From an uncultured Spirochaetota bacterium (GTDB lineage: Bacteria; Spirochaetota; Brevinematia; Brevinematales; JAOACQ01): a stretch of DNA of 64,000 bases. Positions 231 to 61,216 of this stretch are shown in pieces. The notes beneath the pieces are model-generated. The model was not told where the DNA came from and did no database searches. It was given only the letters and a program-made list of their open reading frames with translations. Within the stretch, counting starts at the first letter, position 1, and every line of letters starts with the position of its first letter. The stretch spans positions 1,696,001 through 1,760,000 of the forward strand of contig CAVYGN010000002.1 of assembly GCA_963768055.1 (NCBI GenBank), read 5' to 3'. Made by a program: the position numbers and the translations under genes.

Positions 231-322
231 AGGCAAAAAAGTACTAGAGAGCTAAAAAAAGGTACTGGAGTACTATTGACTCTCTTTGATCATATTTTAT
301 ATAATTTATGCCATTAAAAAAT
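231..322 (+). promoter_or_regulatory. duplicated promoter block, copy A (sigma70-like)
   Basis: TTGACT 276-281, 18-bp spacer, TATAAT 300-305; upstream A-tract-GTAC direct repeats; 85/92 identical to 13774-13865. Confidence 0.7.
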
Positions 323-755
323 TATGAACTGTCAATCTAAGGATAAATTTATAAGAAAAATGAGGTAAGACGCTTTTGAATATGTAAAAATATAATTGTA
401 AAGTGGAAAAGTGAAAAATTAAAAGAGACTATTTAAATCACATTTGCTCTTTAATTCCATTCAAAAAGTTAGTTTTATTAGTCGGGTATTATTTTTCAAA
501 ATTTCTGGTTTGAGTGCGTCATGGTTCTTAATATTTTACGTTAAGCGAATAGGTAAAATAAGAATATGATGATAGTTTATGTATCAAGAAAAGAAAGTGT
601 AATAATAATTTATTGATATTAACGGAGTTGAAAAAAATAGTTGTCAATAATGGATTTGACAATAAAAATATTTTATTATAGTGCTAAGTCATATTTAGTT
701 ATTTGTCGAATATAATAACAATAAAATTTGAGAAAAATATTTAATGGAGTTTGAT

Positions 756-1415
756 ATGAAAATCAGAGGATTGATTGCGTTGTCAGTATTGGTATTATTT
801 TCGTGCAGCGGGCAGAAAATCGGCCCTGAAGAAGACAAAAAAGAAACCTTCCTTTTCAATAAAGCAATCATATTTTATCTCAGGAGAGATTTCAATTCTG
901 CTGAAAAAGGATTCTTGGAAATAGTGCAGAAATACCCATCTTACACCCCGGCATACATAATGCTTGGAAAATCATATTTTTTCATGAACAGGTTTGGAGA
1001 AGCCGAAAAATATTTTAAGCAGTCCATAGATAAATCTCCTAACGTAGATTCATACATCTGGCTTTCCAAGATAGCGATTGCGAATACGAATATGAACCAG
1101 TGCCTTGAGTATCTTAATAAAGCACTGCAACTCGACATGTCAAGTCCGCTCACTCATTATGAACTGGGGAAATATTATAGAATGGCTGGACAATATGATA
1201 AAGCGATATATAACCTTAATTATGCCATTTCATATGAGGATATTTATCCTGAAATGAAAAGCGAGCTGGCTTCACTTTATATGGATCTTGGCGCAAAAGA
1301 TAAAGCCGATAAGCTTTACGGTGAAATACTTAAAAGTTCTGATGTTTCTCCGATGGTAAGATCAAATGTAATAGAAAAAATGGATAAACAGGATAAGTCG
1401 AGGAAGACTAAATGA
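756..1415 (+). CDS. TPR-repeat lipoprotein
   Basis: Lipobox LFSC; several TPR motifs (AYIMLGKSYF, HYELGKYY); GGAG RBS before ATG 756 (ORF track starts at 744). Confidence 0.8.
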   Translation: MKIRGLIALSVLVLFSCSGQKIGPEEDKKETFLFNKAIIFYLRRDFNSAEKGFLEIVQKYPSYTPAYIMLGKSYFFMNRFGEAEKYFKQSIDKSPNVDSYIWLSKIAIANTNMNQCLEYLNKALQLDMSSPLTHYELGKYYRMAGQYDKAIYNLNYAISYEDIYPEMKSELASLYMDLGAKDKADKLYGEILKSSDVSPMVRSNVIEKMDKQDKSRKTK

Positions 1416-1876
1416 AAAAAGGAATTTTATTTGTATTTACGGCTTTTGTTATTTCATTTATCTTCTTTTCCTGCGGTATTGACACTTATAGATATTCATA
1501 TATAAGGCCCTCAGAAAAAAAATTGAATTTAAAAACTTATTCGATTAATAGCGTGGAAGTATTCAATGCTGAATCCTTATTTTTAGACAAAAATGTTGTT
1601 TCCAATACAATAAGCCAGGTTTTCGATATTGTAATGGCGAATAATGGATTCAGCTCGGTCAAGGACGGGGATATTTCCGTGGATATCAAGTTATTTGTTG
1701 AAGAAAATGATGTGATCAATAACAAGCAAACTTTATCCCTCTTTTTGACTATTAATGATAAAAATTCTCCACTTGCCCAATTCATTCTAGCCTCGAAAAG
1801 CAAAGATCTTATCCTCGATAAATCCATGCTGATCAGGGAAATTAACAGCGTGGCCGATCAAATCAAACTTTTATAA
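1412..1876 (+). CDS. hypothetical lipoprotein
   Basis: Signal peptide with FFSC lipobox; start overlaps the upstream stop. Confidence 0.7.
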   Translation: MKKGILFVFTAFVISFIFFSCGIDTYRYSYIRPSEKKLNLKTYSINSVEVFNAESLFLDKNVVSNTISQVFDIVMANNGFSSVKDGDISVDIKLFVEENDVINNKQTLSLFLTINDKNSPLAQFILASKSKDLILDKSMLIREINSVADQIKLL

Positions 1877-1888
1877 CCTGAACGGTTT

Positions 1889-3292
1889 ATGACAAGCGTG
1901 AAAATTAAGGCGATTATCGCTGCACTTATTTTCTCAACAGTTTATTCTGCAGCCGCGGCCGAGCCGTTAACCCTGCAGGAGTGTGTCAGCGAAGGCCTGA
2001 AAAATAACAAGGATATCTGCTATCTTAACGAAGAATCCTCGCTTCAAATATTGGCATTGGATGAACAATACAGAAAATTTTATCCTCAGGCAAGCCTGTC
2101 TTATGCGGAAACGGACCAGGTTAATATGAATTCTCCGGATTACAGGCTGAGGAATCTTTCGGTATCGGTATCACAGCTTATATATGACGGCAATAAGCTG
2201 GGGACTGAAATAGAAATTGAAAAGAACAATATCAGTATAAGCTTGCTGGAAAACAGCCAGAAAAGGATAGATTTTATTTTCCAGATTGTAAGCGGTTATC
2301 TTTCAATTTTAAAACAGCAAGAAAAAATCAACATCAAAAAACAACTTATTGAAACCCAGGAAAAAGAACTCAATATATCAAAGAAGAAAAATGAAGTTGG
2401 TGAGGCGACCAAACTGGATGTCCTTGAATGGCAAATTGAATGTAACCAATCTACAGTCGACGAACTGCAACTGGAAAACGATCTTGTTTTTGGAAAAATG
2501 AGCCTTATGAAGCTTTTAGGAATTGATATTGGAAATTCTTTTGAAGCGAGAGAAAAATTAGAGATAGACGTTGCTGCTTCATTCATTGATTATATAGAAG
2601 ACAGTGTTATCTCAGAAGCGCTTGAAAATTCCATCGATTTAAAAAAAATCCAAATTTCAATTATAAAAGCTAAGGAAACTTCGGTTCTTCACAATCTTTT
2701 GCTTCCCGATATCACATTGAATTTTTCTTACACAACAGATCCGAATTATTTATTTCATCCGGATGCAAGTTCATGGACAGCAGGGATTAATTTTAGCATA
2801 CCATTTTTTTTCGATGTACTTAATTTTGGTAATTCTTATGGCGGAAATATGAACGGAAGTCAAAAAAGTCAGGATCCTCAAATATCTTCGACTGTTTACC
2901 AGGATCCAAGCTTTACCAGAAAATTAAAAGAGGATGCATTTTCTTTCGACCAGCTTTCAAGTCAATATCATGACAAGATCGAAGAGATTAAACTTGATAC
3001 AAAGAAAAAATTAAGCGATTTCAAATTTCAAAAAGAAAAGATAGAAATGCTTGATGAGAAAATCAAGCTGGCTGAAGGTAAAAATACTATTTTATATCAC
3101 CAGGTACAAGTTGGTGAAGCATTACTTTCGGATTATATCAATTCATTAAACACTCTAAGTGAAATGAAAATGGAAAGAGTTGAAAGTCTTTATGATTATA
3201 CGACTTTAATGATTGAAATTTATAAAATCCGGGGAAAACTATCGGAAGATATCGTCAAATCATTATATAAAGATTTTCTTAAAGAGGTCTAA
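1889..3292 (+). CDS. TolC family outer-membrane channel
   Basis: Signal peptide; LTLQECV..GLKNN start; two OEP repeats (YPQASLS..SQLIYDG; LPDITL..W.AGINFSIP; GEAT.LDVL). Confidence 0.85.
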   Translation: MTSVKIKAIIAALIFSTVYSAAAAEPLTLQECVSEGLKNNKDICYLNEESSLQILALDEQYRKFYPQASLSYAETDQVNMNSPDYRLRNLSVSVSQLIYDGNKLGTEIEIEKNNISISLLENSQKRIDFIFQIVSGYLSILKQQEKINIKKQLIETQEKELNISKKKNEVGEATKLDVLEWQIECNQSTVDELQLENDLVFGKMSLMKLLGIDIGNSFEAREKLEIDVAASFIDYIEDSVISEALENSIDLKKIQISIIKAKETSVLHNLLLPDITLNFSYTTDPNYLFHPDASSWTAGINFSIPFFFDVLNFGNSYGGNMNGSQKSQDPQISSTVYQDPSFTRKLKEDAFSFDQLSSQYHDKIEEIKLDTKKKLSDFKFQKEKIEMLDEKIKLAEGKNTILYHQVQVGEALLSDYINSLNTLSEMKMERVESLYDYTTLMIEIYKIRGKLSEDIVKSLYKDFLKEV

Positions 3293-3293
3293 A

Positions 3294-4805
3294 ATGAAAA
3301 AACGTCCTGATAATAAATTGCAGAAAATAATTGCCAATTCAAGGGATTTTGTAACAAAAATTCTCAAATTTTTCAGTACCGGATTAAAACGTCGCATTGG
3401 ATTAGGGCTTGTAGTACTGCTCCTGATAATGGTTGTTGTTTCCATATTCACTTTCAAACCGGTATTCCCGAACTTAAGCCAGGAAAAGGATCAGAAAACA
3501 AATGATATTGCTGTTATGCCTGAAATCAAGGTTTCCCGGATAGAGAAAAGGGGAATTACGGACGAAGTGAACACTTACGGAACAGTTTCTTATTACCAAA
3601 AGGTTAATGTAGTATCTAAAGTGGAAGAAATCGCGGATAAGGTTAATGTCAATATCGGAGATTATGTAAACAAGGACCAGGTTTTGGCAGTAATGAAGAA
3701 TGAATATATAAAATTGGGCGTCGAATTAGCTAAGGAAGACGTGAGAGGCAAGGAAGCATCTTTCGAGTTATCGCTCGCAAAATACAGCAATGCTCTGCTG
3801 GGTGTCGAAAAAAATATTGGGTCCCTTGATAGACTTAGGATAGAAGAGAAACAAAAGAAACTTGAAATTGCAAATGCAGCCAGGATCCTTTCGAATAAAG
3901 ATGAGCTTCTTAGCGTAGAGGGCGTTACAAAGGAACAGTACAAAGATGCGGAAAGCAAGTACGATATTGCCATGCTTGAGCTTGACTCCATATTGAAAGA
4001 GATACAGGTCTCTGAAATCGGTTACAGGGATTCCGATATTAAAAACGCCGGAGAAAATGTGCCTGCTGATAAGGATCAGAGACTTGAAATTTTGAAGAAA
4101 ATTAATACAAAGGTAGAAAGCGCTGAAGTCGATATAGCCAAATCAGAAATAGAAAGATCCCGTCTTCAGCTTCAAACATCCGAATTAAATTTCGATGAAA
4201 CTATTATCAAATCTCCGAATAACGGCATAATAGCAATGCGTTACATCGAACCGGGTGAGAAAGCTGAAAAGGACAAACCCATTTTTACGGTAATTGATCT
4301 CGAAAGTTTATATATAGAATTGCCGGTCCCTGAAACCGAACTGCCGACAATAAAGCAGGACCAGGTTGTAAATATTAAAATTGATGCATATCCTCAAATG
4401 ACCTTTAACGGGATTGTGGAAACAATATATCCCATAGTGGATGTGAAAACAAGAACTGCAACTATAAGGTGTAGAATAAAAAACCAGAGACTTACAAGAA
4501 ACAGATATTTATTAACACCCGGAATGTTTGTTCGCGCAAATATTGTGACATCATCAAGAAAAGACGCTCTGACAATCCCTTTCGACGGTATGGCTGAAAA
4601 GGACAACGCAAGGATAAAAGTTTTCATAATCAAAAGGAATTCAACAGACACAAATACCGGTGTTGCTGTCGAAAAATGGGTGCCGTATTCTAAAATAGCT
4701 GATACCTATATTGAGATCCTGCAAGATCTGGATGAAGGCGATTTAATAGCTGTATCAGGGCTTGATTTTCTGGAAACAGGGCTGAGAGTTAAAATAAAGG
4801 AATAA
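3294..4805 (+). CDS. RND periplasmic adaptor (MFP) with extended coiled-coil hairpin
   Basis: N-terminal TM; lipoyl halves (V..GDYVNKDQVLA; IIKSPNNGII); beta-barrel motifs IYPIVDVKTRT and LTPGMFVRA; probable start 3294 (ORF track 3213). Confidence 0.85.
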   Translation: MKKRPDNKLQKIIANSRDFVTKILKFFSTGLKRRIGLGLVVLLLIMVVVSIFTFKPVFPNLSQEKDQKTNDIAVMPEIKVSRIEKRGITDEVNTYGTVSYYQKVNVVSKVEEIADKVNVNIGDYVNKDQVLAVMKNEYIKLGVELAKEDVRGKEASFELSLAKYSNALLGVEKNIGSLDRLRIEEKQKKLEIANAARILSNKDELLSVEGVTKEQYKDAESKYDIAMLELDSILKEIQVSEIGYRDSDIKNAGENVPADKDQRLEILKKINTKVESAEVDIAKSEIERSRLQLQTSELNFDETIIKSPNNGIIAMRYIEPGEKAEKDKPIFTVIDLESLYIELPVPETELPTIKQDQVVNIKIDAYPQMTFNGIVETIYPIVDVKTRTATIRCRIKNQRLTRNRYLLTPGMFVRANIVTSSRKDALTIPFDGMAEKDNARIKVFIIKRNSTDTNTGVAVEKWVPYSKIADTYIEILQDLDEGDLIAVSGLDFLETGLRVKIKE

Positions 4806-4816: not shown

Positions 4817-6262
4817 ATGAAAAATAAAATAATTATTCCGGCATTATTTGCATTATTCTTATTTGGATTAATAGAATGTTGCAGTTTATTTACCTCTCCG
4901 ACTGTTGTTTCCGTATCTCCCGGTAATGACCAGGAAGTGGGAACGAATTTCAGCATAACAATAGTATTTTCCAAATCAATGCATAAAGACACGGTTCAGA
5001 ACGCTTTTGCACTTTATTGTCTGGGATCTTCAGGAAATTCATCCTCGCCGGGAGCGTTAATCGAAGGAAGTTTTTCATGGGATAGCGATACAACATTGGT
5101 ATTCAGCCCATTTCAGGACCAGCTGGTTTACCCTTCCCAATATTCAATACAGATAGGGAATACGGCAGCCGATTCAGACGGCAACTCATTGGGCAATACA
5201 TATTATTCCAGATTTAAAATTATGGGAAATGCAATTTATCCAACTATTGTTGCAACATATCCTACAAACGGTGCCATTAATGTTCGCATACAAACAAATA
5301 TTACAATTCAGTTCTCGATGCCGATGGATCAGGGAAGTACGATCAGCGCATTTTCTTTAAACCCTTCTATTGCGGGAAACCTGTCATTAAAGTCCAATAT
5401 ATTGCTGTTTCAGCCATCAACCCCATTGAGCAACGGTTGCTATTATAATGTAAATGTAGCAAACACCGCCCAGGGAACCAATGGCGTTAAACTTCAAAAT
5501 TCCTACGTCTTTTATTTCCTTGCCGGCAATGGCCTGACTTTACCGGCAGTTACCGGTATCTATACAAACTTAAACAGCGCACCGCTTACAAATTACCAGT
5601 CAGGCATTGAAAAAACAAATACAAATTTCTTTATTTTATTCAATATACCGATGGACCGGGATTCTGTATACAATAACTTGAGCATTACCCCGTCAGCCAC
5701 ATATTATATTAACTGGATATCCGGCAATACCGCCGCTTTATACTTTACAACTCCACTGATCCCTTCAACAAATTATACTATATCCCTTTCTGCTGGAACC
5801 AAGAGTACATCAGGTTCCCTTCTCCAGAACAATTTCTTATTCAATTTTTACACAGACGGCCTGAATTCGACATTGCCTTTTGTTAATGATATCGTCGCGG
5901 AAACAACCGGAGGATTCGTTGATATGACTAATACAAATATTATATACTTAATACCTATTACTGCAAATACTCTTTGCATAGATGTTTCTTTCTCAGGCCC
6001 GGCAAACATAAACCTGCTTTCTCTTTATACGAATTCATCAATAACGTTTCTTTACGGTAGTGGAGATATATCGCAATCAGGGAAAATTTACACTATCAAT
6101 ATGACCGGCCCGAACAAATTCACATATACGATTACTTCGCTTTGTTTGAGTAATTATTATAAATTTTCTATGACTGGAGGAGCGAATGGAATACAGGATG
6201 TTCTGCAGAATCCTTTATCGGGTTCTTGGAATATTTATTTCTCCATTACTAATACTAATTAG
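4817..6262 (+). CDS. Ig-like (Big_5-type) repeat lipoprotein
   Basis: Signal peptide with Cys; repeated P.VV...P...I.I.FS..MD units; Asn/Thr/Ser-rich. Confidence 0.75.
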   Translation: MKNKIIIPALFALFLFGLIECCSLFTSPTVVSVSPGNDQEVGTNFSITIVFSKSMHKDTVQNAFALYCLGSSGNSSSPGALIEGSFSWDSDTTLVFSPFQDQLVYPSQYSIQIGNTAADSDGNSLGNTYYSRFKIMGNAIYPTIVATYPTNGAINVRIQTNITIQFSMPMDQGSTISAFSLNPSIAGNLSLKSNILLFQPSTPLSNGCYYNVNVANTAQGTNGVKLQNSYVFYFLAGNGLTLPAVTGIYTNLNSAPLTNYQSGIEKTNTNFFILFNIPMDRDSVYNNLSITPSATYYINWISGNTAALYFTTPLIPSTNYTISLSAGTKSTSGSLLQNNFLFNFYTDGLNSTLPFVNDIVAETTGGFVDMTNTNIIYLIPITANTLCIDVSFSGPANINLLSLYTNSSITFLYGSGDISQSGKIYTINMTGPNKFTYTITSLCLSNYYKFSMTGGANGIQDVLQNPLSGSWNIYFSITNTN

Positions 6263-7670
6263 TTTTTTACTTTTCAATTCCTGTTCTTTTTTAGATTTCG
6301 GCCAGCCTGTAATTTCATCTGTAAGTCCTTCAGACAGCCAATCCTTAGCACAAACAAATAATTTCAGTCATGTAGAAATAGTTTTCAGCAAGAAAATGAA
6401 TGAAGGTACAGTTCAAAATGCTTTTTCATTTAAGTATGTAACAGTCGATCCTTATGAAGAATCAAATATCCCGGGAAATTTTCAGTGGAACCAGGACGGT
6501 TCCGATATGTCATTTTATCCTCAGAATTCCTGCAATTTCGGTAAATATAAAATCAGTCTTCTCCCGACAGCTAAAGACGGCGATGGAAATGATATCCTAT
6601 ACGGCACCAATACAACATTTAATATAGGAAATCAGGGGAAATATCCCATAATAGTCTCTACCTACCCGCTTAATAATGCGGCAATTCTTTCGGGTTCAAA
6701 TCTTATCATTACAGTTTCATTTTCAGAATCAATAAATACGGCATACATGTCAAGCATGTTCAGCGTAAGCCCGTCTCTTAATTACCAGATAACGGCAGTT
6801 TCGAATAATACCGTTTTTGAACTTCTCCCCCTGTCGGTTTATCAAAATGGCCAGTATACACTTTCATTTAATACAAATAGCATTATCGACCTTTCCGGCA
6901 ACATGCTCCGTCCGACGCCTAATTTATTTTTTACCATCGGGACAAATTTTAATCCCCCGCGATTGCTCGGGATTTATACCAACCCGGATGCTGTCACCGG
7001 GCCCCTGACCCTGACGAACGGCTTGAACAATATCGATAAAAATAACAATCTTTATTTTTCATTTAATAAGAGCCTCGCAGTCAATTTGAATAATATACCT
7101 ATAAATTTCAGTCCGCAGGTCAGCGGAACCTGGGCTACCAACTCAAGCGCAAATGTCCTGTCGTTTACTCCCTCTTCATACTGGAACATAGGAACCGCCT
7201 ACACTGTTACAGTTAACAGCGGGTTCAAAGATATTTTCGGGAATGTATCTCAAAACACATATCAATCTTACCTTGAAATATCAAATTCGTTTATCTTTTT
7301 AACAAATATTATTTATTCCGACTCGGGTAGCGATACGGTTAATTGGAATTCTTCAGCCCTGAATTACGGTCCTTTTAAACCAGGTAATATAACAATCTAC
7401 CTTTATTTCAGCACCTCGCTTCAGCCGGTATCCGTTTTGCCGAATATCGGGATAAATACTTTTAACAGTATAAATAACTCCATTTCAATAACCACAATAG
7501 CTTTCATGACGAATAACTCTCCGAATGACTCGATATGCGTGACTTTGATGAATCCTTCAAATTATATCCTCTACTATCTTTCAGTCAACGGAGGAACAGG
7601 CGGTCTGAGGGACATGAATCAGAACTGGTTATCCAGCAATATTAATATATTTTTCAATTTAACAAATTAG
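6186..7670 (+). CDS. Ig-like (Big_5-type) repeat lipoprotein, paralog of the upstream gene
   Basis: FNSC lipobox; IVFSKKMNEGTVQNAF matches upstream IVFSKSMHKDTVQNAF; similar C-terminus GG.GG..D..QN.L. Confidence 0.75.
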   Translation: MEYRMFCRILYRVLGIFISPLLILISFLLFNSCSFLDFGQPVISSVSPSDSQSLAQTNNFSHVEIVFSKKMNEGTVQNAFSFKYVTVDPYEESNIPGNFQWNQDGSDMSFYPQNSCNFGKYKISLLPTAKDGDGNDILYGTNTTFNIGNQGKYPIIVSTYPLNNAAILSGSNLIITVSFSESINTAYMSSMFSVSPSLNYQITAVSNNTVFELLPLSVYQNGQYTLSFNTNSIIDLSGNMLRPTPNLFFTIGTNFNPPRLLGIYTNPDAVTGPLTLTNGLNNIDKNNNLYFSFNKSLAVNLNNIPINFSPQVSGTWATNSSANVLSFTPSSYWNIGTAYTVTVNSGFKDIFGNVSQNTYQSYLEISNSFIFLTNIIYSDSGSDTVNWNSSALNYGPFKPGNITIYLYFSTSLQPVSVLPNIGINTFNSINNSISITTIAFMTNNSPNDSICVTLMNPSNYILYYLSVNGGTGGLRDMNQNWLSSNINIFFNLTN

Positions 7671-10600: not shown

Positions 10601-10741
10601 TTGATGTTTTTCCCCGGAGAAGGCATGGAGTTCCAGAGAATACTTTCAATAACAATTGCCGGGGGCTTCTTTTTTGCAACATCCATAACGCTTTTTTTCC
10701 TTCCATCGCTTTATTACATGATTGAAAAGCGGGGAAGATGA
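7697..10741 (+). CDS. RND efflux permease (AcrB/AcrD/AcrF family), subunit 1
   Basis: 1014 aa; LFPKIDYPVITI, VTVPMEE, two TM bundles, RFRPIIMT motif. Confidence 0.9.
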   Translation: MNISKIVVKHPKGTVILFLSIIIFGSVSLPFINKDLFPKIDYPVITIVTSLENKSPQEIRNLVTVPMEEILSSTSGLRNIRSVSRYGESIITLYFDWGINLDLTYMETREKLDFAKSILPQGTSRPIALRFDPNSDPIMTIGIDILNKDLEGDERNYIRKNISPLFERIDGVAFAEIVGGNEKEIRVDVSLDKLYANNLSIDEVVKALEENNIEYPVGEIEESKTSFTVNIEGKINNYNQLGNFVVGRNENGVPIYLQSIADIHPDNKEKKIVFRLNGKEGAALNIYKEGDANIVRTADNIAEKLPFIRDKTKNDISYKIILDNSSYVKNSINDIVSSAIIGVILTFFVLYIFLEDFIASFIVGIAIPITIIMTIFFMYLMNISINLISLTGLSIGIGSMVDANIVIIENIKRYMAKENDDQTLIHAAGEVSAPVISSILTNIAVFLPIVFVQGIASSIFRELSLVVTFSHLSTLLTSIMLTPALYKLLENRKIRAIFKSKVHFAHIIERFKNSYLKILDKTLDHIQTLIVVLSMLLVISITALMSNKKEVLPMLSQNSFNINMKFPPNYSIDRTEESTGEIERIITANRKADYYYSIIGDYSALSSFSQAKKNNVSSLKVFLKKGANTHDEINNAKIRIGRFFNNTEIGIEENQTAFSRLFPSENEVYITGTPLDYIQKIGRYVTDIISRQGVSNISMSADEEQTIGLVFDRTALNNSGLSTKTVADIAGICIDGKVATKIETPDNSEMDVRVKLGDNIFSEQENLFKILLKPPHGQNVLLSTIATLTNETKTTEISRYNQQEMVSIRFSDPGTDLKKIQDNIKSLQLSKNAAISYSWDTPEIKKSIGSLMLVLLLSIVVIFVIIAFQFESISKSLLIMVTIPLIFIGLSPVLVLFGVTINVISLVGIILLVGIVVDNAIVMVDFYERYKKPSMTALEIRNLVLQGSGVRFRPIIMTSLATIIALLPLMFFPGEGMEFQRILSITIAGGFFFATSITLFFLPSLYYMIEKRGR

Positions 10742-13749: not shown

Positions 13750-13773
13750 TTAGGTAGGAATTAAAATATTTTA

Positions 13774-13865: not shown

Positions 13866-14026
13866 CATTTTAATGGTGAATTTAGTAAGAAAGCTGAGGT
13901 AAGATACTTCTGAATGTTTGAATGCAAGCTTGACAAATTATTTTATTTCTTGTACGATTTTGTTAAAAATATAACAATTTAAAATATACCTAGAAATAAT
14001 TATAATTATCCGGTCTCGAGGTATTT

Positions 14027-17000: not shown

Positions 17001-20000
17001 CCGGGGCTAACAGCGATATTTCACAGGATGAGCTTAATATAACACGCACCACAATATTGGACGATTTTTATAAGTATGTTAATACTCCTGAAGAAAGCCT
17101 TTATGAACTCGCTTTCGGGATAAGGTCCTACGATTATTTTACGAATATAGCGGGCGCGAATCTTACGGCGTTCGACAACCTCGTACACACGACTTTTCTT
17201 TCCGGCCGCGTCGATAATTCCCTGCTCAACCCCGGAGCATACGTCGACGTCCAGGGATATATAGACGGGCTTACGGCCCTTCTGTCAACCCCCGGACTCG
17301 ATCCGAATATGTCGAATGTTATCAATAACCTCGCTAATGTTCTTGCTCCCGAAGGCTCCTATTTCCAGCTTAGCAGGGGGTATATTCCTGCCATAACCAA
17401 TGTAAATATAACCCCGGCGAACACAAATTGGCCTCAGGAGGCGCCTCAGCCCATCATTACACCAGCCGTGACTAATATCACGATATCCCGACTCGGCGGA
17501 TATTATGCAGACGATACCTTCTATAATGTCAACACTAACAACGGGCGTGAGAAGATATCCGATTTATTCAAAGGCTTTATCGAAACAAACAATTCTGTTA
17601 CATATTCATGGGCGACAGTGAATCCCAATAATTACTTTGATTACAACGGCTATTATGGGAACTGGTCATATTATAATTCAGTGCTGCTGGGAATCGAGAA
17701 AAATGAAGAAACGACAATTGTAATGCCCCTGATGTCAACAATGACTAATAACCTGGCCGGAGTAATGTCGGACTGGAACGATTATTCGAACAAGAACGCC
17801 GGGTTCGCGCAGTACACTGTTTCCGGCATGGGACATTTCGTCAATTCTTCAGGGGGCATAGATGTAACAGCCGGCAATAACGGTTTTCTAAAATCGTTCA
17901 AGAACTCGCTCTCCCGGGTTTCGAATTTTTCAATCGCTCAATCCTGGCTGGCAAATACCGGCGTTTTTAATGCCGAAGAGGCTTATATAGCGGATAACCT
18001 TAGCCTGGGCAATGCCGGGACAAACGACATCGGAAGGATACTTGAAGTGTTTGAAAACGCTTTTAAGTTATATATAAATTCGGAACAATCCAATATTCAG
18101 AACGATCCCGCGTTTACAACAAACAATGACATGAAGTTATTTATTACAACTATGCTCAGCGGCGCATATTCCAACGCGGTATTCAGAGCTTCGGATGAGG
18201 CTCAACCATCATTCGTAGACGCTGCCGAGAATGCCGGCAGCCTAGCCCCGGAGGCTTTCGACATAGCCTTCCAGCAGCAGGAAACCCTGCAGGTCGATAA
18301 GTGGGCGTATATATTAACAAATATGCAGGACCAGGCGAATAGTGAAGCCGAAATGTGGGTCAATATATACAGCGCCGGAACAGAGCAGTGGAACGGGGTA
18401 ATTAACCAGTACACCAATGCAATGAGCGATTGGCAAAGCTCTTATCTGCAGGCCTGGAACAACGGGAACCAGGAATGGAACGATCAGATGAACGGCCTTA
18501 CCGGGGATAAAGCGGCTTGGATGAATGAAGCGATAAATGCTGTAAGCAACGGAAGTTCCGATTATATTCTGGACCAGCTTATGCAGTCAATCGACCAGAG
18601 GACATCGCAGTTCTTAAGCGGAGGCCTTCCTGAAGACGTCGCTTCGGCGGTCAAGAACGAGGCTTTAGACCTGGAAAACGAATTGATGCCGAAAACAAGC
18701 GAAGAATACCTGTCGTTTTTCAATAACGCGGTATCGCAGTCGAGGGAGACGGATGTAAAATTCGTACTTGACGGCATAGCCGGATATACCGGAAACGATA
18801 ACGAAACCCTCGCCCAGTTCAATAACGATATGACGGCTTTCAAGAACAGCCAGCTCGCCATAGAAGCCATAAAAATGAGGGATCAATTCGTTACCACAAT
18901 ACAGCAGTATGTCGACCAGATGAATAATACATTGGCAAGCGACGACCAGAACGAGCGGAGCAGCGAATTCTACCCGATGATCTCGGCAAAGGGCTGGACG
19001 CTCGACGGAAGCGACTGGGTCAAGAGGGGCGTGATCGTACATTCCACAATGCTCGGCGGAAACCAGCTGGAGGACTTTTCATTTGCGGATTACCAGAGTT
19101 TTACAAACCGGCTCAATTTCATAAACTACGCACCAAGCAACGTAATATCGGAGATCAACGGCGAGCAGACGGAGTACAACCTGCTCTTAGCTATGGAGGA
19201 AAGCGATATACAGGGCGATATGAGCAATACCATGGACGCTTTCGATAAACATATAGGCTCGTCGTATACGTATACGTCGAAGCCGGACATATACTCCGAC
19301 GGTACATACGACAGCCAGGGCGAACTGTACAGGACCTCATGGGCCACGACATATTACGGATACCTGCAGACGGAAGGATTGTCGGAGTCCGAAAAACCCT
19401 TCTGGGACCAAAACCTGGCCCCGGGGATAGACATATCGTTCTATTCGCTGAACGAGATCGGTCTTGCAATCGCACTTAACTTTATACCGGGTATGGGAAC
19501 TGTTGCATCAGCAGCTATATTAGCGGGCATGGCCATGACGCATGATATTGTGGATGCCGCCGCAGAACTGGGGACCGTGAACCAGGTATCCAACAGCCAG
19601 CTTGGAATAGACCTCCTCAAGGACACCATAAGCGGCGTGACAACTATGGCTACGGCGGGAATAGGTTCGGCCGCCCTCGGCGTTGTTGGAAGCGCGGTAC
19701 TTTCCACCGGCGTGCAGGACCTGAGCGGCCTGGCCGAGGAAGGACTTCACGTCAATTCGAGCGGAGATATTGATTGGAGCATGACCTCCTCGCAGTGGGG
19801 AAGCTGGGGAATGTCAAGCCTCGGTGACCTCGCAGGATCAGTCGCGGGGGCGGGGCTGGGCTCGGCGTTCGGAGGATTTGCCCAGGATGCGACCGGATTC
19901 ATGGGAGACGACCTCAGCAGCGCGTTCGGAAACGGAATACAGAATTTTACCACGTCATTCTTCACCAACACCTTCTCGACCCTCGGAAGCAATCTTGGCG

Positions 20001-21814
20001 CCGGCCTCGACTGGAACAATATGACCCTGAACCCCAGCACATGGAATATGAAGGCCGGTTCCACGATCAATATGAACTGGGGAAACATACTTAACAATTC
20101 CCTGGTAGCTGGAGCCTCCGGCTTCGCTTCGGGGCTTGCGGGGTCTTTGCTCGGCGGACAGTACAACGCCGATATGGGAGGAATGGACTATAACGGACTT
20201 ATCGGGGGTGATGCTTACAATAATTTCGCAAATGTAATAGGATCGTTCGCAGGACAGGGCGCAAACTACGAACTGAACGGAAGCTTCAACATAGACCTCG
20301 GCGCGGGTATCGGCACAAGCTATGTTAATGGCAAAGGCTTCGTGCGCAATGACGGGACATCGGGAGTAAGCCTCATAAGCTGCCTGCAGGGATTTTCCGA
20401 CTTATCGAATTCATCGAACCTGCCGGCCTTGCCTGTAAATAACAATCAGGACGCAAGCACGACGCCGGAACTCCCGCAAGCCATATTGCCTAAGGATCCA
20501 TCCGACTATATTCCGGAAAGCGATATCGTCAATCCGAATGTTCCGGACAATTCATATAGCGGAGCGAATAATGCGGCCAATCCAAATCCGAATGCGTTTA
20601 CTCCTGCAACAGTAGCTTATAATGAAATAGGGCAGCAAGTTCCACTTACTGATACACAGAGTCCTGTAGTTCCCCAGACAGTAAACCCTTATGACCATAT
20701 TTCAGACGGGAATAATTCCGGTCCGATTTTACCATATCAGCAAGTAGCAGAGCAGGCGTATCTCAATCAAAGCGATGCGTACAAGACCCAGATTTCAGAC
20801 CTTCAGAATAACCTTGGCATAGTTACGAGTGCCGGTATCATCAATACAAGTTCGGCAGTGAGCGATCTGAAGAGCGATATTCACGTAACAGATAATGCAA
20901 TGCAGCAGAATTATTCGTCATATCTCGGCAATGCCGGGATTGATGTTTCAAGATTCACAAAAGATGCTAATGGAAATATAACGAGCAACATATCTAATAA
21001 TTCCAGTTTTGTCAGCCAGGTATATCAGGACCAGGTGGATCACTATAACCGTGTTATGGATGATGCGAAGGATAATGCGGTAGTGAATGGCATAAATAAC
21101 ACATATAATGCAATGCTTTCGGCAAACAATAACGCGAATATTGTACAGAATGTTGGTTTAGGAAATGCAGGAAATATTACTGATGTTATAAACTATCAAA
21201 ACGATATCAGAAGCAATAATATTTTAAATATGAACGGCAGCAATAATGGAAACATTGTCAGCGACAGCCTGCAAAACAAAGGAAATTATTTTATGGTCGG
21301 AGAACAGGGATTGGGTTTTGGAACGCCTGCAGGCAACTATGGCGATTCTTATAGCGACCGTATCAGTGTTTTCAAAATGGATGACGCCGGTAATATTGAC
21401 TTGAAAGAATTCAACCAGTCCAATCTGGAATCGACAAACGATAAATATGATAGTAAAACCAACACTTATGATCCGACTCAGCAGCAATATTCTGACACTG
21501 CCTCTGGTATATATAATCTTACTACATATCAATGGACGGGGGAAGGACATGATTCCCCAGGAATGCAATTCTGCTTCTTAATAAATGATAAAGGGCCTGT
21601 CTCTACCAGTGATGGAATGAATAACGTTGCCTATCCATGGCAAGGTCCTATTATATATGATTCGAGAGTGCATACAGGTGGAGTTTATTGGAATGGCAGT
21701 GAAGCATGTAGCACAATAAATCCTAACGATTATTATCAGTTGATGAGTATGTTTCAAAATTCAAATGGATCATATCAATATGGAAGTCAAGGCACATATT
21801 ATCTATTAAGATAA
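14027..21814 (+). CDS. giant secreted protein, putative polymorphic toxin with C-terminal L,D-transpeptidase-like domain
   Basis: 2595 aa; GAGG RBS; N-terminal signal/TM; Trp-periodic helical repeats; Gly-rich hydrophobic region; C-terminal VHTGG-x5-SEACSTI; reminiscent of the Leptospira TIGR04388-type large proteins (not verified). Confidence 0.7.
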   Translation: MKIKGLLNEKWGILLSLYLAIIFSFIPGILRPQEKFNSFDNKEMQSELIYGDNIKNDADWQNYSKGVEQKLEGDWETSALNELMQQLGLTEHEAMSNSDFITAKTNWEAQASNVIQQMYGSWLAQNKWNYAVNGSAIRQFIVQYVWEDQNDTSNITANILSMQTNVDAEWSNYLICYQAGLSDYLNYLETNTQNISSTAMENYLDAIQATAKAQMAAASDIGSEFIALEEGQYIKYMASFLAYQQFISNNSLITNGLQLSNNMVSYISNAADAASNVNSPLTIAENVIQSMDSNEAEIAGLLAMPTNFTDSPAVGISEWKSMVEQDYTAGISEWDAAIANLSNSMIIWENNAENGYTNGLTEWENSYFMLISAEMDFQSNVTADLTNSEAVWGSNISAQYDSLNLMIGTMTNLTARNIDNFNSYESGLMNVLVNGSYALNELNKSLDWISNTLSVDEISNNYYSNLYASDMAKSNLDESELSSSNTLLSLFNNCQSILEPLMVLTGTNRYFQGGEGGVEAVPAYSASTNIDGYTLTYSGDSYNNSYTVNGNEIYYTANGFSFENSEPVMIIKSYINSIQSDLNSIQNAIQTNKWYYRHYSSEIGSLNNVLGECGTNLGAVIGNAAADLNSELYSGDPGAGVLANALSNTADIYLMNSAEMDYASQQDQVNYLKQNLGIAQAVMDYAVSNSGGGDILSASNTYEAAVSNYDVSTNELEAEQAAADSADVAMTNYMENINAAQTNMIADQSNCGIAQSNYNAFVTIQTNLDYFTSKEYSNLINSNENAQNILSNDSIAYYSCLAYYTGLVKDYYNALEQESFTNSLAMSNYITVREDLGILEWALMPGMLGIDNTSNAYVSVANYINPVSDYSNALQLYDTAENGLARTSNLIIAEETLPANMQSEVNNFIGDYSDYSKLMNFAQSFMNQEQTVYQSLEGAKSTYDRDATNSFGLSADDIASDPVYADVVKKMSAGAYTPADIITMLNNEIGVTGANSDISQDELNITRTTILDDFYKYVNTPEESLYELAFGIRSYDYFTNIAGANLTAFDNLVHTTFLSGRVDNSLLNPGAYVDVQGYIDGLTALLSTPGLDPNMSNVINNLANVLAPEGSYFQLSRGYIPAITNVNITPANTNWPQEAPQPIITPAVTNITISRLGGYYADDTFYNVNTNNGREKISDLFKGFIETNNSVTYSWATVNPNNYFDYNGYYGNWSYYNSVLLGIEKNEETTIVMPLMSTMTNNLAGVMSDWNDYSNKNAGFAQYTVSGMGHFVNSSGGIDVTAGNNGFLKSFKNSLSRVSNFSIAQSWLANTGVFNAEEAYIADNLSLGNAGTNDIGRILEVFENAFKLYINSEQSNIQNDPAFTTNNDMKLFITTMLSGAYSNAVFRASDEAQPSFVDAAENAGSLAPEAFDIAFQQQETLQVDKWAYILTNMQDQANSEAEMWVNIYSAGTEQWNGVINQYTNAMSDWQSSYLQAWNNGNQEWNDQMNGLTGDKAAWMNEAINAVSNGSSDYILDQLMQSIDQRTSQFLSGGLPEDVASAVKNEALDLENELMPKTSEEYLSFFNNAVSQSRETDVKFVLDGIAGYTGNDNETLAQFNNDMTAFKNSQLAIEAIKMRDQFVTTIQQYVDQMNNTLASDDQNERSSEFYPMISAKGWTLDGSDWVKRGVIVHSTMLGGNQLEDFSFADYQSFTNRLNFINYAPSNVISEINGEQTEYNLLLAMEESDIQGDMSNTMDAFDKHIGSSYTYTSKPDIYSDGTYDSQGELYRTSWATTYYGYLQTEGLSESEKPFWDQNLAPGIDISFYSLNEIGLAIALNFIPGMGTVASAAILAGMAMTHDIVDAAAELGTVNQVSNSQLGIDLLKDTISGVTTMATAGIGSAALGVVGSAVLSTGVQDLSGLAEEGLHVNSSGDIDWSMTSSQWGSWGMSSLGDLAGSVAGAGLGSAFGGFAQDATGFMGDDLSSAFGNGIQNFTTSFFTNTFSTLGSNLGAGLDWNNMTLNPSTWNMKAGSTINMNWGNILNNSLVAGASGFASGLAGSLLGGQYNADMGGMDYNGLIGGDAYNNFANVIGSFAGQGANYELNGSFNIDLGAGIGTSYVNGKGFVRNDGTSGVSLISCLQGFSDLSNSSNLPALPVNNNQDASTTPELPQAILPKDPSDYIPESDIVNPNVPDNSYSGANNAANPNPNAFTPATVAYNEIGQQVPLTDTQSPVVPQTVNPYDHISDGNNSGPILPYQQVAEQAYLNQSDAYKTQISDLQNNLGIVTSAGIINTSSAVSDLKSDIHVTDNAMQQNYSSYLGNAGIDVSRFTKDANGNITSNISNNSSFVSQVYQDQVDHYNRVMDDAKDNAVVNGINNTYNAMLSANNNANIVQNVGLGNAGNITDVINYQNDIRSNNILNMNGSNNGNIVSDSLQNKGNYFMVGEQGLGFGTPAGNYGDSYSDRISVFKMDDAGNIDLKEFNQSNLESTNDKYDSKTNTYDPTQQQYSDTASGIYNLTTYQWTGEGHDSPGMQFCFLINDKGPVSTSDGMNNVAYPWQGPIIYDSRVHTGGVYWNGSEACSTINPNDYYQLMSMFQNSNGSYQYGSQGTYYLLR
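20273..20518 (+). repeat. 246-bp direct repeat, copy 1 (pre-toxin homology block)
   Basis: Identical to 23570-23815 except for 2 substitutions. Confidence 0.95.
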
Positions 21815-22896
21815 TGGATTGTAATATGAAAAATATGGTAATTATAATTATTTTCACAATAATAAGTTTTAAACTTTATGCTGCTTCAATAGAAATTGCT
21901 GGAGACGATATTTTTCACCATGATATTTTTACAAAAACTATTATTGATCCTGATAATGGTGATCCCATTGAATATAATATATTTAATTTCTTCGATAATA
22001 ATCAGAAAACTGCAGTAGTTATAAATGCTAAATTTAGGCAAAATGATGATATATTTAAATATCCATTTTTTAGAATAAGCTTAAAAAAACAATATAATAT
22101 TGATAAATTAGTGTTCTATAATGGTTTCCAAATAAATGATGATTTATATAATAAAAATAGCAGGGTAAAAGAGATTCAAATTACATTTTTTCTTGAAAAT
22201 AAAATTTTTGTAAATGAAGGGGAAATTTATAATGATGTAATCATTGATGAAAAAGGGAGAAAGCAAAAAATTGTAATTGAATGGACAAATATTATAACGA
22301 CGAACTGTATTTTGCTTGATACAAAAGGAAAACAAATAATTGAATTTCCTGAAGTTAACGCAAATAATTTAAAAATCGATGTATTAACCTACTATTCAGG
22401 CACTCAGTATGATGATATCTGTATAAGCAAGCTTGAGTTCTGGTACAGGGGCGAGAAGTACCAAGTGACTAATCTTAAGGAAGCAAAGAAAGAATATGTT
22501 AAATTGTATATTGCACATGTTCTTAATTCATTGGAACCGGGTGTATTTTTGCATGATATGGAAGAAAATAATTATAACAGACTTATCAAGATAGCAGGGT
22601 GGAAATATGAACAATCTGAAAGCAGGCAGGTTGGAATATTTTTTGAAAAATCTGGAGAAATAAAAATCCATCGATTTTTGCTATCATCCGTCAAAGATCG
22701 TGATTTATTCCCAACTAAAATCATCGGAAAATGGAAATTCGATAATGAAGGAAGACTATTCATTATGATAGGTAATGGGCAATTTAAATTGTCGCAAGGG
22801 AAAAGTATTTTTACAAGTTCATCTACGGAAAAAGGGCCGTATTTTGTTGGAACTGATCTTGAATTTGAAGGTATTATGGAACCATCGAGACCTTAG
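21814..22896 (+). CDS. putative immunity protein 1 (exported; discoidin/NADase-type glycan-binding-like domain)
   Basis: TAATG stop/start overlap with the giant gene; signal peptide; YNGFQ..Y.KNSR.K and YDDICISKLEFW motifs; very AT-rich. Confidence 0.65.
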   Translation: MDCNMKNMVIIIIFTIISFKLYAASIEIAGDDIFHHDIFTKTIIDPDNGDPIEYNIFNFFDNNQKTAVVINAKFRQNDDIFKYPFFRISLKKQYNIDKLVFYNGFQINDDLYNKNSRVKEIQITFFLENKIFVNEGEIYNDVIIDEKGRKQKIVIEWTNIITTNCILLDTKGKQIIEFPEVNANNLKIDVLTYYSGTQYDDICISKLEFWYRGEKYQVTNLKEAKKEYVKLYIAHVLNSLEPGVFLHDMEENNYNRLIKIAGWKYEQSESRQVGIFFEKSGEIKIHRFLLSSVKDRDLFPTKIIGKWKFDNEGRLFIMIGNGQFKLSQGKSIFTSSSTEKGPYFVGTDLEFEGIMEPSRP

Positions 22897-22926: not shown

Positions 22927-23229
22927 ATGGACAACAAAAACAAGCCATCCGGCGTTCCCGTTAAATTCCAGGACACCGCGAATAAAGTAGCATACTCCAA
23001 CTTCGCTCTGATCAACAACTCGTCGGAGGAGTTCCTGCTGGACTTCGGCAATATCACCCCCGGCAAGGAGGGAGTGGAGGTATTCAGCAGGATAGCGCTC
23101 TCCCCCCGCAACGCGAAGCTGTTCCTGAGCGGGCTTATGGAGCGTGTGAAGAAGTTTGAAGAACAGTTTGGCCCGATCAAGCCGCCAGAGGCGGTGGAGG
23201 TAGAGGCGATGAACGGGAGAGATAAGTGA
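22927..23229 (+). CDS. DUF3467 family protein, copy 1
   Basis: AYSNFALINNSSEEFLLDFG..SRIALSP.NAK.....L...V.KFE..FG.I signature. Confidence 0.8.
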   Translation: MDNKNKPSGVPVKFQDTANKVAYSNFALINNSSEEFLLDFGNITPGKEGVEVFSRIALSPRNAKLFLSGLMERVKKFEEQFGPIKPPEAVEVEAMNGRDK

Positions 23230-23550
23230 CGATTAACGATTGTCGAATGACGATTGAAACCAGGTAATAGTAAAGATTATGATTATAGAACAAAGGTTAG
23301 CGAACAACCCCCGCCTGCGAGGGAAGCGCCCGGGGGTTGATCCTTGTAAAGCAGGCCGTCCGCGAAAAACGGCGGTAAGCCCTGCCCCTTATCGATATCT
23401 GTTTTTTTATAAAAGAATTCGTTCGCTTAAATTAAAAACCTTAAGGGGCGGGACAGCCGTTTTGAGCGGTTGCAGTTCATGCTTCCCGAGCCCAGCGGGG
23501 GCGGTTTCTTTCGGTTCGCTTTCTTTGCCGGCCAAAGAAAGCGAACAGGG
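23227..23550. repeat. structured non-coding repeat element, copy 1
   Basis: Heptamer repeats, nested inverted repeats and terminal 14-bp hairpin GTTCGCTTTCTTTG/CAAAGAAAGCGAAC; second copy at 27901-28248. Confidence 0.8.
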
Positions 23551-23569
23551 GGCCAGGCATATCTCCGCC

Positions 23570-23815
23570 CTGAACGGAAGCTTCAACATAGACCTCGGCG
23601 CGGGTATCGGCACAAGCTATGTTAATGGCAAAGGCTTCGTGCGCAATGACGGGACATCGGGAGTAAGCCTCAGAAGCTGCCTGCAGGGATTTTCCGATTT
23701 ATCGAATTCATCGAACCTGCCGGCCTTGCCTGTAAATAACAATCAGGACGCAAGCACGACGCCGGAACTCCCGCAAGCCATATTGCCTAAGGATCCATCC
23801 GACTATATTCCGGAA
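23570..23815 (+). repeat. 246-bp direct repeat, copy 2
   Basis: Matches 20273-20518 with 2 mismatches. Confidence 0.95.
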
Positions 23816-25084
23816 GACGATGTTGTTAATACGAATCCTTCAAATAATACTTGGGCTGACCCTGGGCTTGCCGCTTCAAACGTAGTGAATAATGTGACCA
23901 ATCCGGCTCCGAATGTATTTAATCCTGCTAATGTGGCTTATAATGAAATAGGACAGCAAGTTCCACTTACTGATATGCAAAATTCTTCGTTATCGCAGAA
24001 AGTAGACCCGAATGATCATATTTCTATTGGCAGTGCCGCTCTTCAGGATTTGCTTTACAAAAATGGGGAATACAGCAATCAGCTCAAAACACTTCAGAAT
24101 GATATGAGTACTGTTCAGGGTGTTGGGTTAAATAATGCTAGTTCTATTGTTGGAGACCTCAAAAATGATTTTAAATCAACAGACAGCTTAATGCAACAGA
24201 ATTATACATCTTATCTGAGTGATAACAATATTAATGTATCAACATTCAAAGTCAATTCAGATGGCAGCGTGTCCAGCAATATATCGAATAATTCTTATGT
24301 CAACAATCAACTTTATCAGGAACAAAAAGATCATTACACTAATATCGCAAACGAAATGAATAATAGTTATCAAACTAATGAAATAAATAACACGATTAAT
24401 ACGCTTCAAAGTGTCGGGTTAAACAACTCGGCGGCACCGAGTATCGATCCGGCGATCTCAGATATGAAGGACCAGATAACTATAATAAATAACAGCTATA
24501 ATAAAAATATTCTTAGTAATGGTCTGAATAATAATAACAGATATGATTTTATAGGGGAAGAAGGACGCGGAAACTATCAGCAAACAGGTCCTGATTATTA
24601 CGGCGACAGAATTACTGTACTTCAGAAAGATGCGAGCGGTAATATCAATTTCGATGAGTTCAACAGATCCAACCTTGAATCGACTAATGATCCCTCATTA
24701 GACAGAAAAGACTATGATCCAGCAAAAGGCGGATTTCAATCAACTGCAGCTGGTATATATTCGCTTACAGCAAGCGGCGATACATCTAATCTTAACTCAC
24801 AAGATATACCATTAATATTTAGCGTAAATGACGGGCAAAACATACCGACAGAGGGAAATCAAAATAACGCATATAACTATAATACGCCTTACATGAACCA
24901 GATTCTTGTTCATGAAGGCGGCGACAACTATAACTGGAGCGCGGGATGCTCTACGATATATATTGATGATTACCCAGCATTAGCGAACTTATTTGGGAAT
25001 TATAATTCGCAGACAAAGAAATTTATACCTTATGCAGGAAGTTATTCGGCAATAGGAAGCGGTACATATTATCTTTACAGGTAA
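23570..25084 (+). pseudogene. orphan alternative C-terminus cassette of the giant protein
   Basis: Begins with the 246-bp repeat in the same reading frame; then a divergent but homologous CT with VHEGG-x5-SAGCSTI and terminal GTYYLYR; no signal peptide; the ORF-track start at 23279 lies inside the structured element. Confidence 0.75.
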
Positions 25085-25093
25085 AAGAAGGTT

Positions 25094-26053
25094 ATGAAAG
25101 TTAAAATTATGATAATTCTCAGTCTACTAATAATCTATTCATGTATAAATGCATCAAAAATTGAATTAGATGGAATAGAGAGGGGGAAACTTGGACTTAT
25201 TTATACAATATTTGGTGAAGATAATAGCCCCCTAAAATATAATGAATTTAATTTATTGGATAAGAATTTGAAAACAGCTTCTGCTATCAGCAAAAGTAAT
25301 TGTTCACCTGAAGATTCAATACCATGGTTCAATATATTTTTTAAAAAAGAATTCCCTGTTGATAAAATTGTAATCTATAATGGATTTCAATTGAATATGA
25401 CAGTTTATCAATTAAATGACAGACCCAATGAAGTAAAAATCGATTCACAAAATGAGAGTGATGATTCCACAAATTATTCATTTGTTACAAACATTCAACT
25501 ATTAGATATTACTAATAGTCAGGAACTTTTATTAAATAAAGAAATTAGAATAAAAAATTTTGGTATAGGTGTCCTTTCCACCTATCCAGGTACAAAGTAC
25601 GACGACATCTGTTTAAGCAAGCTTGAATTCTGGTACAAGGGCGAGAAGTATAATGTTGCAAATCTTGAAGAAGCCAAGAAAGAATATATTAAGACATACA
25701 TCCAGAGATGCCTTCATTGGATATTATCATATTATTATATAAACTCTATCAATCCTGAAGGGATGGATAAATTAGATAAACTTGCGGGAATAAAGAAAAC
25801 GGTAGAATTAGGATATGACACATGTATAAATTTTGAAAAGAGCGGAGATATCAAAGTGATACCGGCACTGGAAGATAATAAGGTAAGGGTACATGTCGGC
25901 AGCTGGAAATTCGACGATGAAGGAAGGCTATGGATTAAATTAGACAATGGCGACTGGAAGGTATCAAAAAGTTCCGAATCGAATGTTAATTTTGGCAAAA
26001 GACATTTTATCGGGACCGATCTCGATTGTGTTATTGCAGGTTGGGGTGGGTGA
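25094..26053 (+). CDS. putative immunity protein 2, paralog of 21814-22896
   Basis: Signal peptide; YNGFQ, YDDICLSKLEFWYKGEKY, G.WKFD.EGRL, F.GTDL shared with paralog; starts 10 bp after the orphan CT stop. Confidence 0.65.
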   Translation: MKVKIMIILSLLIIYSCINASKIELDGIERGKLGLIYTIFGEDNSPLKYNEFNLLDKNLKTASAISKSNCSPEDSIPWFNIFFKKEFPVDKIVIYNGFQLNMTVYQLNDRPNEVKIDSQNESDDSTNYSFVTNIQLLDITNSQELLLNKEIRIKNFGIGVLSTYPGTKYDDICLSKLEFWYKGEKYNVANLEEAKKEYIKTYIQRCLHWILSYYYINSINPEGMDKLDKLAGIKKTVELGYDTCINFEKSGDIKVIPALEDNKVRVHVGSWKFDDEGRLWIKLDNGDWKVSKSSESNVNFGKRHFIGTDLDCVIAGWGG

Positions 26054-26115
26054 TATTGATGATATTTAGAAAATTACTTTTATTAAAAAATAATAATCGA
26101 GCAAGAGGCTAACTA

Positions 26116-26478
26116 ATGGACAACAAAAACAACACCAAACCATCGGGCGTTCCTGTCAAATTCCAGGACACCGCCAATAAAGTAGCATACTCCAACTTTG
26201 CGCTGATCAACAATTCGTCCGAAGAGTTCCTGCTGGACTTCGGAACGATCACGCCCGGAAGGGAAGGGGTTGAGGTGTTTGGCAGGATAGCGCTTTCTCC
26301 CCGCAACGCGAAGCTGTTCCTCCAGGGTCTGGCTGAAAGAGTAAAAAAGTTTGAAGAACAATATGGCCCGATCAAGCCGCCGGAGGCGGTGGAGGTGCTT
26401 GTCCTGAATTCCCGCCAGAATTCAGGGCTTGCGCCTGTGGTGGAGGCGATTAACAAGGGAGAGCATCATCTAAAATAA
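26116..26478 (+). CDS. DUF3467 family protein, copy 2 (15-aa in-frame hairpin insertion)
   Basis: Near-identical to copy 1; extra LVLNSRQNSGLAPVV encoded by 26398-26442. Confidence 0.8.
   Translation: MDNKNNTKPSGVPVKFQDTANKVAYSNFALINNSSEEFLLDFGTITPGREGVEVFGRIALSPRNAKLFLQGLAERVKKFEEQYGPIKPPEAVEVLVLNSRQNSGLAPVVEAINKGEHHLK

Positions 26479-58972: not shown

Positions 58973-61216
<2,244 letters not shown>

Follow-up and report, generated by a model that had tools for sequence, protein, structure and literature searches.

The window analysed here, a stretch of 64,000 nucleotides from an uncultured Spirochaetota bacterium (GenBank assembly GCA_963768055.1, contig CAVYGN010000002.1, positions 1,696,001 to 1,760,000), carries an eight-gene operon for an apparatus of two resistance-nodulation-division (RND) permeases, a membrane fusion protein (MFP), a TolC-family channel and four lipoproteins, and directly after it the gene of a 2595-residue protein, hereafter the giant. 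The results unveiled a real, phylum-wide pairing of a new polymorphic-toxin superfamily, to which the giant belongs, with this dedicated-looking RND-TolC apparatus, and the pairing is apparently undescribed. The reading that we favor, with a probability of roughly 0.6, is that a Sec-fed, proton-driven RND-MFP-TolC machine exports or displays the giant toxins through transport steps that we infer. At somewhat better than even odds, the whole would constitute an undescribed two-step secretion system of spirochetes, in which a proton-driven RND heteromer, an MFP with a 172-residue hairpin, TolC and the four lipoproteins export helical toxins delivered by Sec, of 2000-4500 residues and from the TIGR04388 superfamily, to attack the peptidoglycan of competitors, the same machine possibly serving for entry into the target.

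Co-inheritance of the giant and its operon

The giant and the operon are co-inherited across the phylum. In the source genome (G000; 3.69 Mb in two contigs, 94.75% complete), the giant and the eight operon genes are present in one copy each, and a second, ordinary RND is encoded away from the locus. Gene families in the window were assigned by a Pfam/NCBIfam profile search of open reading frames (ORFs), which located all the ORFs and families that a preliminary description of this DNA had reported, namely the operon, the giant and two tip-immunity units. Relatives were sought by profile searches over genomes, as word-based homologue searches reached few of them. Among 41 relatives, the giant and the operon occur together and adjacent in G000, G003, G007 and G013, while most others have neither, and close relatives lose both together.

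The survey was extended to 401 genomes of the phylum, using an immunoglobulin-like (Ig) lipoprotein as operon marker (E<=1e-25) and the giant (E<=1e-10), with thresholds set after viewing the data. The marker was found in 95 genomes, the giant in 80, both in 72 and neither in 298. In three of the 8 genomes with the giant only, the marker scores between 1e-20 and 1e-24, and a renewed search of five placed it 9-11 kb from the giant in three, leaving G064 (510 contigs) and G122 (85% complete). The preliminary description had named, as the outcome that would speak against a dedicated coupling, homologs of the giant that usually lack the RND/TolC operon nearby; the gene-neighbourhood survey found the opposite, with the marker in 78 of 80 giant-positive genomes after follow-up. 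In the 70 genomes with both elements placed, they lie within 20 kb in 35, at 90 kb in 1 and on different contigs in 34, so that 35 of the 36 same-contig pairs are within 20 kb. A scan of metagenomes with the MFP returned one short contig.

Within the phylum, the superfamily of the giant spans at least 19 families. In one of them (f15), taken as Leptospiraceae because of its match to TIGR04388 (Lepto_longest), 17 of 75 genomes have a strong Ig marker, and these are the same 17 that have a strong giant match, at all nine threshold pairs and in three genera. Of 14 TIGR04388 matches, 9 also have the operon in the region upstream. Related RND loci of many phyla, 80 in number and serving as a control (a generic sample, many of them short), contained the Ig pair once, in a Leptospiraceae record, and the spirochete giant trunk in no case. 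Three apparent cases of an operon without a giant (G069, G291 and G144) were rejected, since each has a giant adjacent or divergent. Furthermore, trees of RND1, the MFP and the trunk for 17 pairs, three of them unlinked, have clades in common, with distance correlations of 0.53 and 0.54 (0 of 2000 permutations) that are inflated by kinship. In each of the three trees, two genomes of family f51 with unlinked giants split alike, and one Leptospira subtype lies apart from the rest. A Leptospira-family subtype (L039, L040 and L052) has both RNDs strongly diverged, with the RND2 relay motifs lost, and a short giant (~1970 aa).

Both units of the locus are preceded by a promoter block of 134 nt with 87% identity between its copies, containing a sigma70-like promoter; 85 of the 92 nt of its core are identical. 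Copy 1 opens with a duplicate of the final codons of RND2 and is therefore probably derived from copy 2. The shared 92-bp promoter proposed previously is thus present in both units, but it is neither unique, with four occurrences of the core motif in G000, nor conserved, and it suggests co-regulation of the operon and the giant in G000 alone. One occurrence lies before a radical-SAM/S8-peptidase cluster (G000:C2:1646151-1662000, L238), which comprises an S8 peptidase, three radical-SAM genes, a 79-aa Cys/Ser/Thr-rich peptide, and ABC transporter, acyl carrier protein and ketosynthase genes. This is a possible cluster for a lipidated, ribosomally synthesized and post-translationally modified peptide, possibly part of one antagonism regulon.

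It should be considered that the operon could be an exporter of small molecules or lipids, or an envelope scaffold, which would sit on one mobile island with the toxin and belong to its regulon but have no part in handling it. Its RND, MFP and TolC families are ordinary (best RND match, MdtB), the apparatus occurs without a detected giant in draft genomes, and the same motif precedes the unrelated radical-SAM cluster. We nevertheless regard this explanation as unlikely, as the two stay paired even without linkage (G163, G315 and G375), the partnership holds while gene order and orientation vary, and RND2 decays in some lineages.

The apparatus and the proposed export route

Genomic coupling, together with a missing secretin in some carriers, points to export of the giant, as far as sequence can indicate. 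In the genome searches, no secretin, the mark of a type II route, was found in G000, in G003 or in the complete genome G322, and no VgrG in G000. At the locus, the preliminary description had seen no ABC ATPase, TpsB, VgrG/PAAR or Rhs, and our family search likewise gave no match to any of them. The type VI and Rhs routes are represented neither by VgrG at the locus nor by Rhs repeats in the toxin; as for type I secretion, the ABC ATPase is absent from the locus and the giant starts with a Sec-like signal. As for two-partner secretion (CdiA/CdiB), with its TpsB partner and beta-helical trunk, TpsB was not found in the locus and the trunk of the giant is predicted to be helical, nor was ShlB found in a genome-wide search run without a positive control.

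The MFP is distinguished by the spacing of its lipoyl half-motifs, which is 172 residues in 19 copies and 167-173 in all 22 measurable ones of 30. Control MFPs gave a median of 67 (15-289; 28 measurable of 51, one zero value dropped). Its best PDB match is EmrA (4TKO), which has a long hairpin. RND1 keeps one relay Asp, in transmembrane helix 4 (TM4), and usually the TM11 Arg, whereas the TM10 Lys is replaced; the relay motifs of RND2 are altered here and lost in several f15 copies.

In the mechanism that we propose, Sec would move the giant into the periplasm, where the tetratricopeptide repeat (TPR), small and Ig lipoproteins would capture its helical trunk. A heteromer of RND1, as the proton-conducting subunit, and RND2 would then thread it outward with the long, fixed-length MFP and TolC, either as an unfolded chain or as a helical hairpin, after which it would be displayed as a stalk or released, perhaps through the PT-HINT domain of some Leptospira-family members. 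The tip would attack peptidoglycan in the periplasm of a neighbor, with a periplasmic immunity protein protecting the producer, and recombination would exchange the tips.

Several observations weigh against this route. We know of no RND that exports a large protein. The long hairpin also occurs in the drug pump EmrA, so its length alone is no proof of protein cargo, and the single Asp in the RND motif was given no weight because the pattern is generic in the clade. A secretin is present in three of five other carriers (G213, G309 and G144), G000 has a second, unexplained Omp85-family gene, and the promoter block was not found before the same genes in G003. Giant and operon lie on different contigs in 34 of the 70 placed genomes, and the operon is missing in 5 of the 14 regions upstream of TIGR04388 matches, three of which are extra copies in genomes where a linked pair sits elsewhere. 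Sixteen marker-positive genomes gave no giant with a larger trunk profile, the marker-only genomes being drafts of 30-770 contigs and the profile having recovered only two of five genomes with known or weak giants, so that these misses do not amount to absence. In five genomes (G044, G046, G059, G300 and G372), all eight operon genes stand beside unrelated neighbors and no giant was found; cells with the apparatus only may exist. [quoted passage not shown]

The genomes in which the operon but no giant was detected could also be explained if the apparatus were the place where toxins enter or dock on the recipient. Toxins would then pass only between carriers, resulting in kin discrimination, and the giant would leave by another route. 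The uptake of colicin E1 uses TolC, according to the accessible text of PMC11762307, the trunk is all-helical, and the matching of giant and apparatus subtypes fits a receptor-ligand pairing equally well. However, giants are nearly never without the operon (78 of 80), which export explains directly, and the searches of G000, G003 and G322 revealed no alternative way out. We therefore consider a receptor in place of an exporter quite unlikely; the two roles could be combined.

Tips, cassettes and trunk of the giant

Judged by its sequence, the giant belongs to a family of polymorphic toxins that target mainly the periplasm. The polymorphic-toxin reading given earlier is borne out by variable tips on a conserved trunk, an adjacent immunity-candidate gene that varies along with the tip, and orphan cassettes with homology tracts. 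The tip, the last 205 residues, has homologues in 58 representatives, and all 43 sequences of the alignment retain its catalytic His, Ser and Cys. In structure comparisons with the tip model (predicted local distance difference test, pLDDT, 87.5), the top 20 matches all have the YkuD fold, with Z from 9.5 to 5.9 and the next match at 3.0; they include Pgp2 (Z 9.5), Csd6 (Z 9.1) and Tlde1a (Z 6.6). Foldseek on the same model agreed weakly with this fold (best E 6e-3). The Tlde1 profile (PF10908) matched none of 5 tip members, YkuD reached E 0.08 in the orphan tip only, and PDB sequence searches with the tip, DUF3467 and the immunity candidate gave no match. The model points to a YkuD-fold Cys enzyme. 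The Rhs core motif was found by pattern in 6 of the 58 tip homologues, two of them confirmed by eye; since the tip also ends Rhs proteins, the domain is a mobile tip. Stand-alone relatives of 160-195 aa (P0038 and P0058), whose nearest look-alikes are phage-rich Atlas clusters, are possible phage cell-wall enzymes.

Other giants end differently. Among 31 C-termini chosen from linked or large contigs, eight have peptidase families (M23 four, C39-like two, M74, and NlpC/P60; two below cut-off), five PT-HINT, one LysM and 17 no Pfam match. The genes 3' of the giants encode discoidin (5), LRR (3), SH3 (3), MORN, RCC1 or TPR proteins, and in a crude test 25 of 27 have an N-terminal hydrophobic stretch and none later, which gives their products the look of exported proteins. 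Alternatively, the giants could be surface structures instead of weapons, with peptidoglycan-active tips for remodeling the cell's own wall, adhesion or feeding and regulators encoded downstream, which would agree with the occurrence of YkuD, M23 and NlpC/P60 domains in housekeeping enzymes too and with the 17 tips without a Pfam match, but which is very unlikely given the unrelated tips on one trunk, the silent cassettes with their own downstream gene, the PT-HINT domains in 5 of 31 and the same tip on Rhs proteins.

The toxin-immunity plus orphan layout of the preliminary description was confirmed, with three corrections: the DUF3467 genes had not been listed, the orphan start was wrong, and the orphan tip in the window is a 49%-identical variant from the same toxin family as the giant tip. 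Over its first ~250 nt, the orphan cassette nearly repeats the giant sequence from position 20273 on (96% over 274 nt), and the first ~95 codons of the 601-aa orphan ORF are read-through from a non-coding repeat. Since homology to the giant begins only at ~23563-23570, the orphan ORF has no signal peptide. Silent cassettes have 150-440 nt of near-identical DNA in common with their giant; in G003, the tips are different and four tracts of 146-440 nt are 97-100% identical. A DUF3467 gene follows every immunity-like gene in the window and in G003, and a 40%-identical paralogue lies elsewhere in the genome (G000:C2:706940). Directly before each orphan cassette in the two genomes, and nowhere else in G000, stands an element with a strong hairpin (z -3.9), possibly a site at which cassettes join or recombine. 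Its second copy in the window occupies 27904-28248, and three related copies were found in G003 (L011, 10453-10551, 13086-13184 and 17683-17781). A repeat-rich lipoprotein gene with paralogues elsewhere (26524-27543) and a second lipoprotein gene (28382-28963) have 46 nt in common around their starts and may be additional immunity cassettes.

The giant has no Pfam/NCBIfam match and a single N-terminal hydrophobic stretch (residues 10-34), which resembles a signal peptide. Its trunk is all-helical and Trp-patterned, with a Gly-rich hydrophobic stretch at ~1810-2100. A model of the first 489 mature residues (pLDDT 72, predicted template modeling score 0.44) is all-helical, with confidence over the first 200, and gave no fold match. 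The suggested relation to the large Leptospira proteins of TIGR04388 holds as remote N-terminal homology, although neither the giant nor any other sequence in G000 matches the TIGR04388 model itself. The trunk profile aligns in register with the N-termini of Leptospira TIGR04388 proteins (hhalign probability 73% and 84%, with pairwise E values of 3e-5 and 8e-6), and a profile without Leptospira rows matches ORFs that TIGR04388 also finds (G259, G226 and G123). We have moderate confidence in this homology, bearing in mind that helical sequences can match spuriously. Extra Leptospira-family giants without the operon (L041, L043 and L055) lie on small islands with genes that by eye are ParA-like, primase-like and integrase-like. 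At many giant starts (L088, L096, L149, L151, L155 and L156), a poorly conserved ORF of 190-300 codons abuts the gene; it may represent a leader region and not code for a protein of its own.

The features of the locus are collected in Table 1. Rfam gave no match in positions 1-30000 of the window. At 58973-61201, the G+C content climbs to 53-57% across overlapping long ORFs on both strands.

Table 1. Positions of the locus features in the window
Feature	Position	Strand	Basis
Promoter/operator block copy 1: AGTAC repeats, then TTGACT-18-TATAAT	192..325	+	
TPR lipoprotein, conserved operon member	744..1415	+	family match
Small lipoprotein, no family; weak DUF4410/DUF4823-like lead	1412..1876	+	
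TolC-family (OEP) outer-membrane channel	1889..3292	+	family match
RND MFP, membrane-anchored, start probably 3294; 172 residues between lipoyl half-motifs	3213..4805	+	
Big_5 Ig-like lipoprotein 1	4817..6262	+	family match
Big_5 Ig-like lipoprotein 2, paralogue of 1, ~29% identical	6186..7670	+	
RND permease 1 (ACR_tran); TM4 Asp402 and TM11 Arg retained	7697..10741	+	
RND permease 2 (ACR_tran); proton-relay motifs altered	10738..13749	+	
Promoter/operator block copy 2	13735..13868	+	
Giant, predicted toxin, 2595 aa; variable C-terminus	14027..21814	+	
Predicted YkuD/L,D-transpeptidase-fold C-terminal domain, His-x8-Ser-x2-Cys	21197..21814	+	
Immunity candidate 1: signal peptide and NADase-type discoidin domain	21814..22896	+	
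DUF3467 gene after immunity candidate 1	22927..23229	+	
Non-coding element, putative cassette junction, terminal 14-bp-stem palindrome	23230..23555	.	
Silent orphan C-terminal cassette: ~250 nt near-identical to giant, then divergent predicted YkuD-fold tip	23563..25084	+	
Immunity candidate 2, sharing 37% identity with candidate 1	25094..26053	+	
Second DUF3467 gene	26116..26478	+	
DUF3467 remnant and second junction element, no toxin cassette behind	27793..28248	+	

Relation to known systems and significance

A conserved trunk, a variable tip with an immunity gene next to it, orphan cassettes that carry recombination tracts and, in some members, PT-HINT are shared with the polymorphic toxins CdiA, Rhs, MafB and LXG (PMC3482391). 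In contrast to these, the giant trunk matches no known trafficking domain and the tips would act largely in the periplasm; in the survey text, the words TolC, RND and Leptospira are absent from the first 300,000 characters. The TIGR04388 proteins (e.g., LA_3725) are alike in signal peptide, helical N-terminus, variable C-terminus and, in 9 of 14, the operon upstream, whereas the window giant falls outside their model and the family search found no HINT domain in it. In the part of PMC9638812 available, Tlde1 is a type VI L,D-carboxy/transpeptidase effector, and Tlde1a a peptidoglycan-attacking effector with the YkuD fold. The tip resembles it in fold (Z 6.6; root-mean-square deviation 3.9 over 112 residues) and in a short His...Ser-x-x-Cys loop, and by this likeness its target would be peptidoglycan. 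It differs in its 12% identity, in Glu or Ala instead of His before GC, in its fusion to the giant trunk and in the discoidin-type immunity candidate.

The apparatus is similar to MdtABC-TolC and EmrAB-TolC in its twin RND, MFP, TolC and EmrA-like long hairpin, to which the operon adds four conserved lipoproteins, a fixed 172-residue hairpin together with RNDs and the coupling to a protein of 200-450 kDa. HlyBD-TolC and MacAB-TolC (heat-stable enterotoxin II) export protein through TolC and a long MFP, and MacAB picks it up from the periplasm; the present locus, in contrast, lacks an ABC ATPase, and its proposed cargo, much larger than enterotoxin II, bears a signal peptide at the N-terminus. 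An Omnitrophota twin-RND locus directly preceding an ORF of 2203+ aa (L158) was not counted, having no Ig pair and no trunk match. That locus (4387-21318) and others in Omnitrophota/Planctomycetia (L167, L172, L175 and L179) have twin RND, MFP and a large TolC-like protein and represent a possible parallel system; neither TolC nor efflux comes up in two preprints on Omnitrophota.

A literature search, mostly outside subscription papers and without supplements, found no description of the coupling of giants to RND/TolC. The accessible parts of earlier reports note the HINT domain of LA_3725 and no exporter (PMC4751964), tabulate LA3725, the lipoprotein LA3730 and the TolC-like LA3733/LIC10496 separately (PMC2387172), place LIC10496 in three species only (PMC9586249), and describe one Leptospiraceae-specific toxin domain without this apparatus (bioRxiv 2021.10.19.465003). 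The proximity of the LA3725, LA3730 and LA3733 tags, judged from the locus tags alone, suggests the same layout.

The novelty lies in the apparatus and its coupling, as the toxin half alone varies a known kind of system. RND pumps are regarded as transporters of small molecules; if our export reading is true, the passage of a 280-kDa protein through an RND would be an added secretion route, and genes annotated as drug efflux would be reassigned. The system is directly testable in saprophytic Leptospira. It would represent a widespread interbacterial weapon of spirochetes, including Leptospira, and would explain the longest Leptospira proteins.

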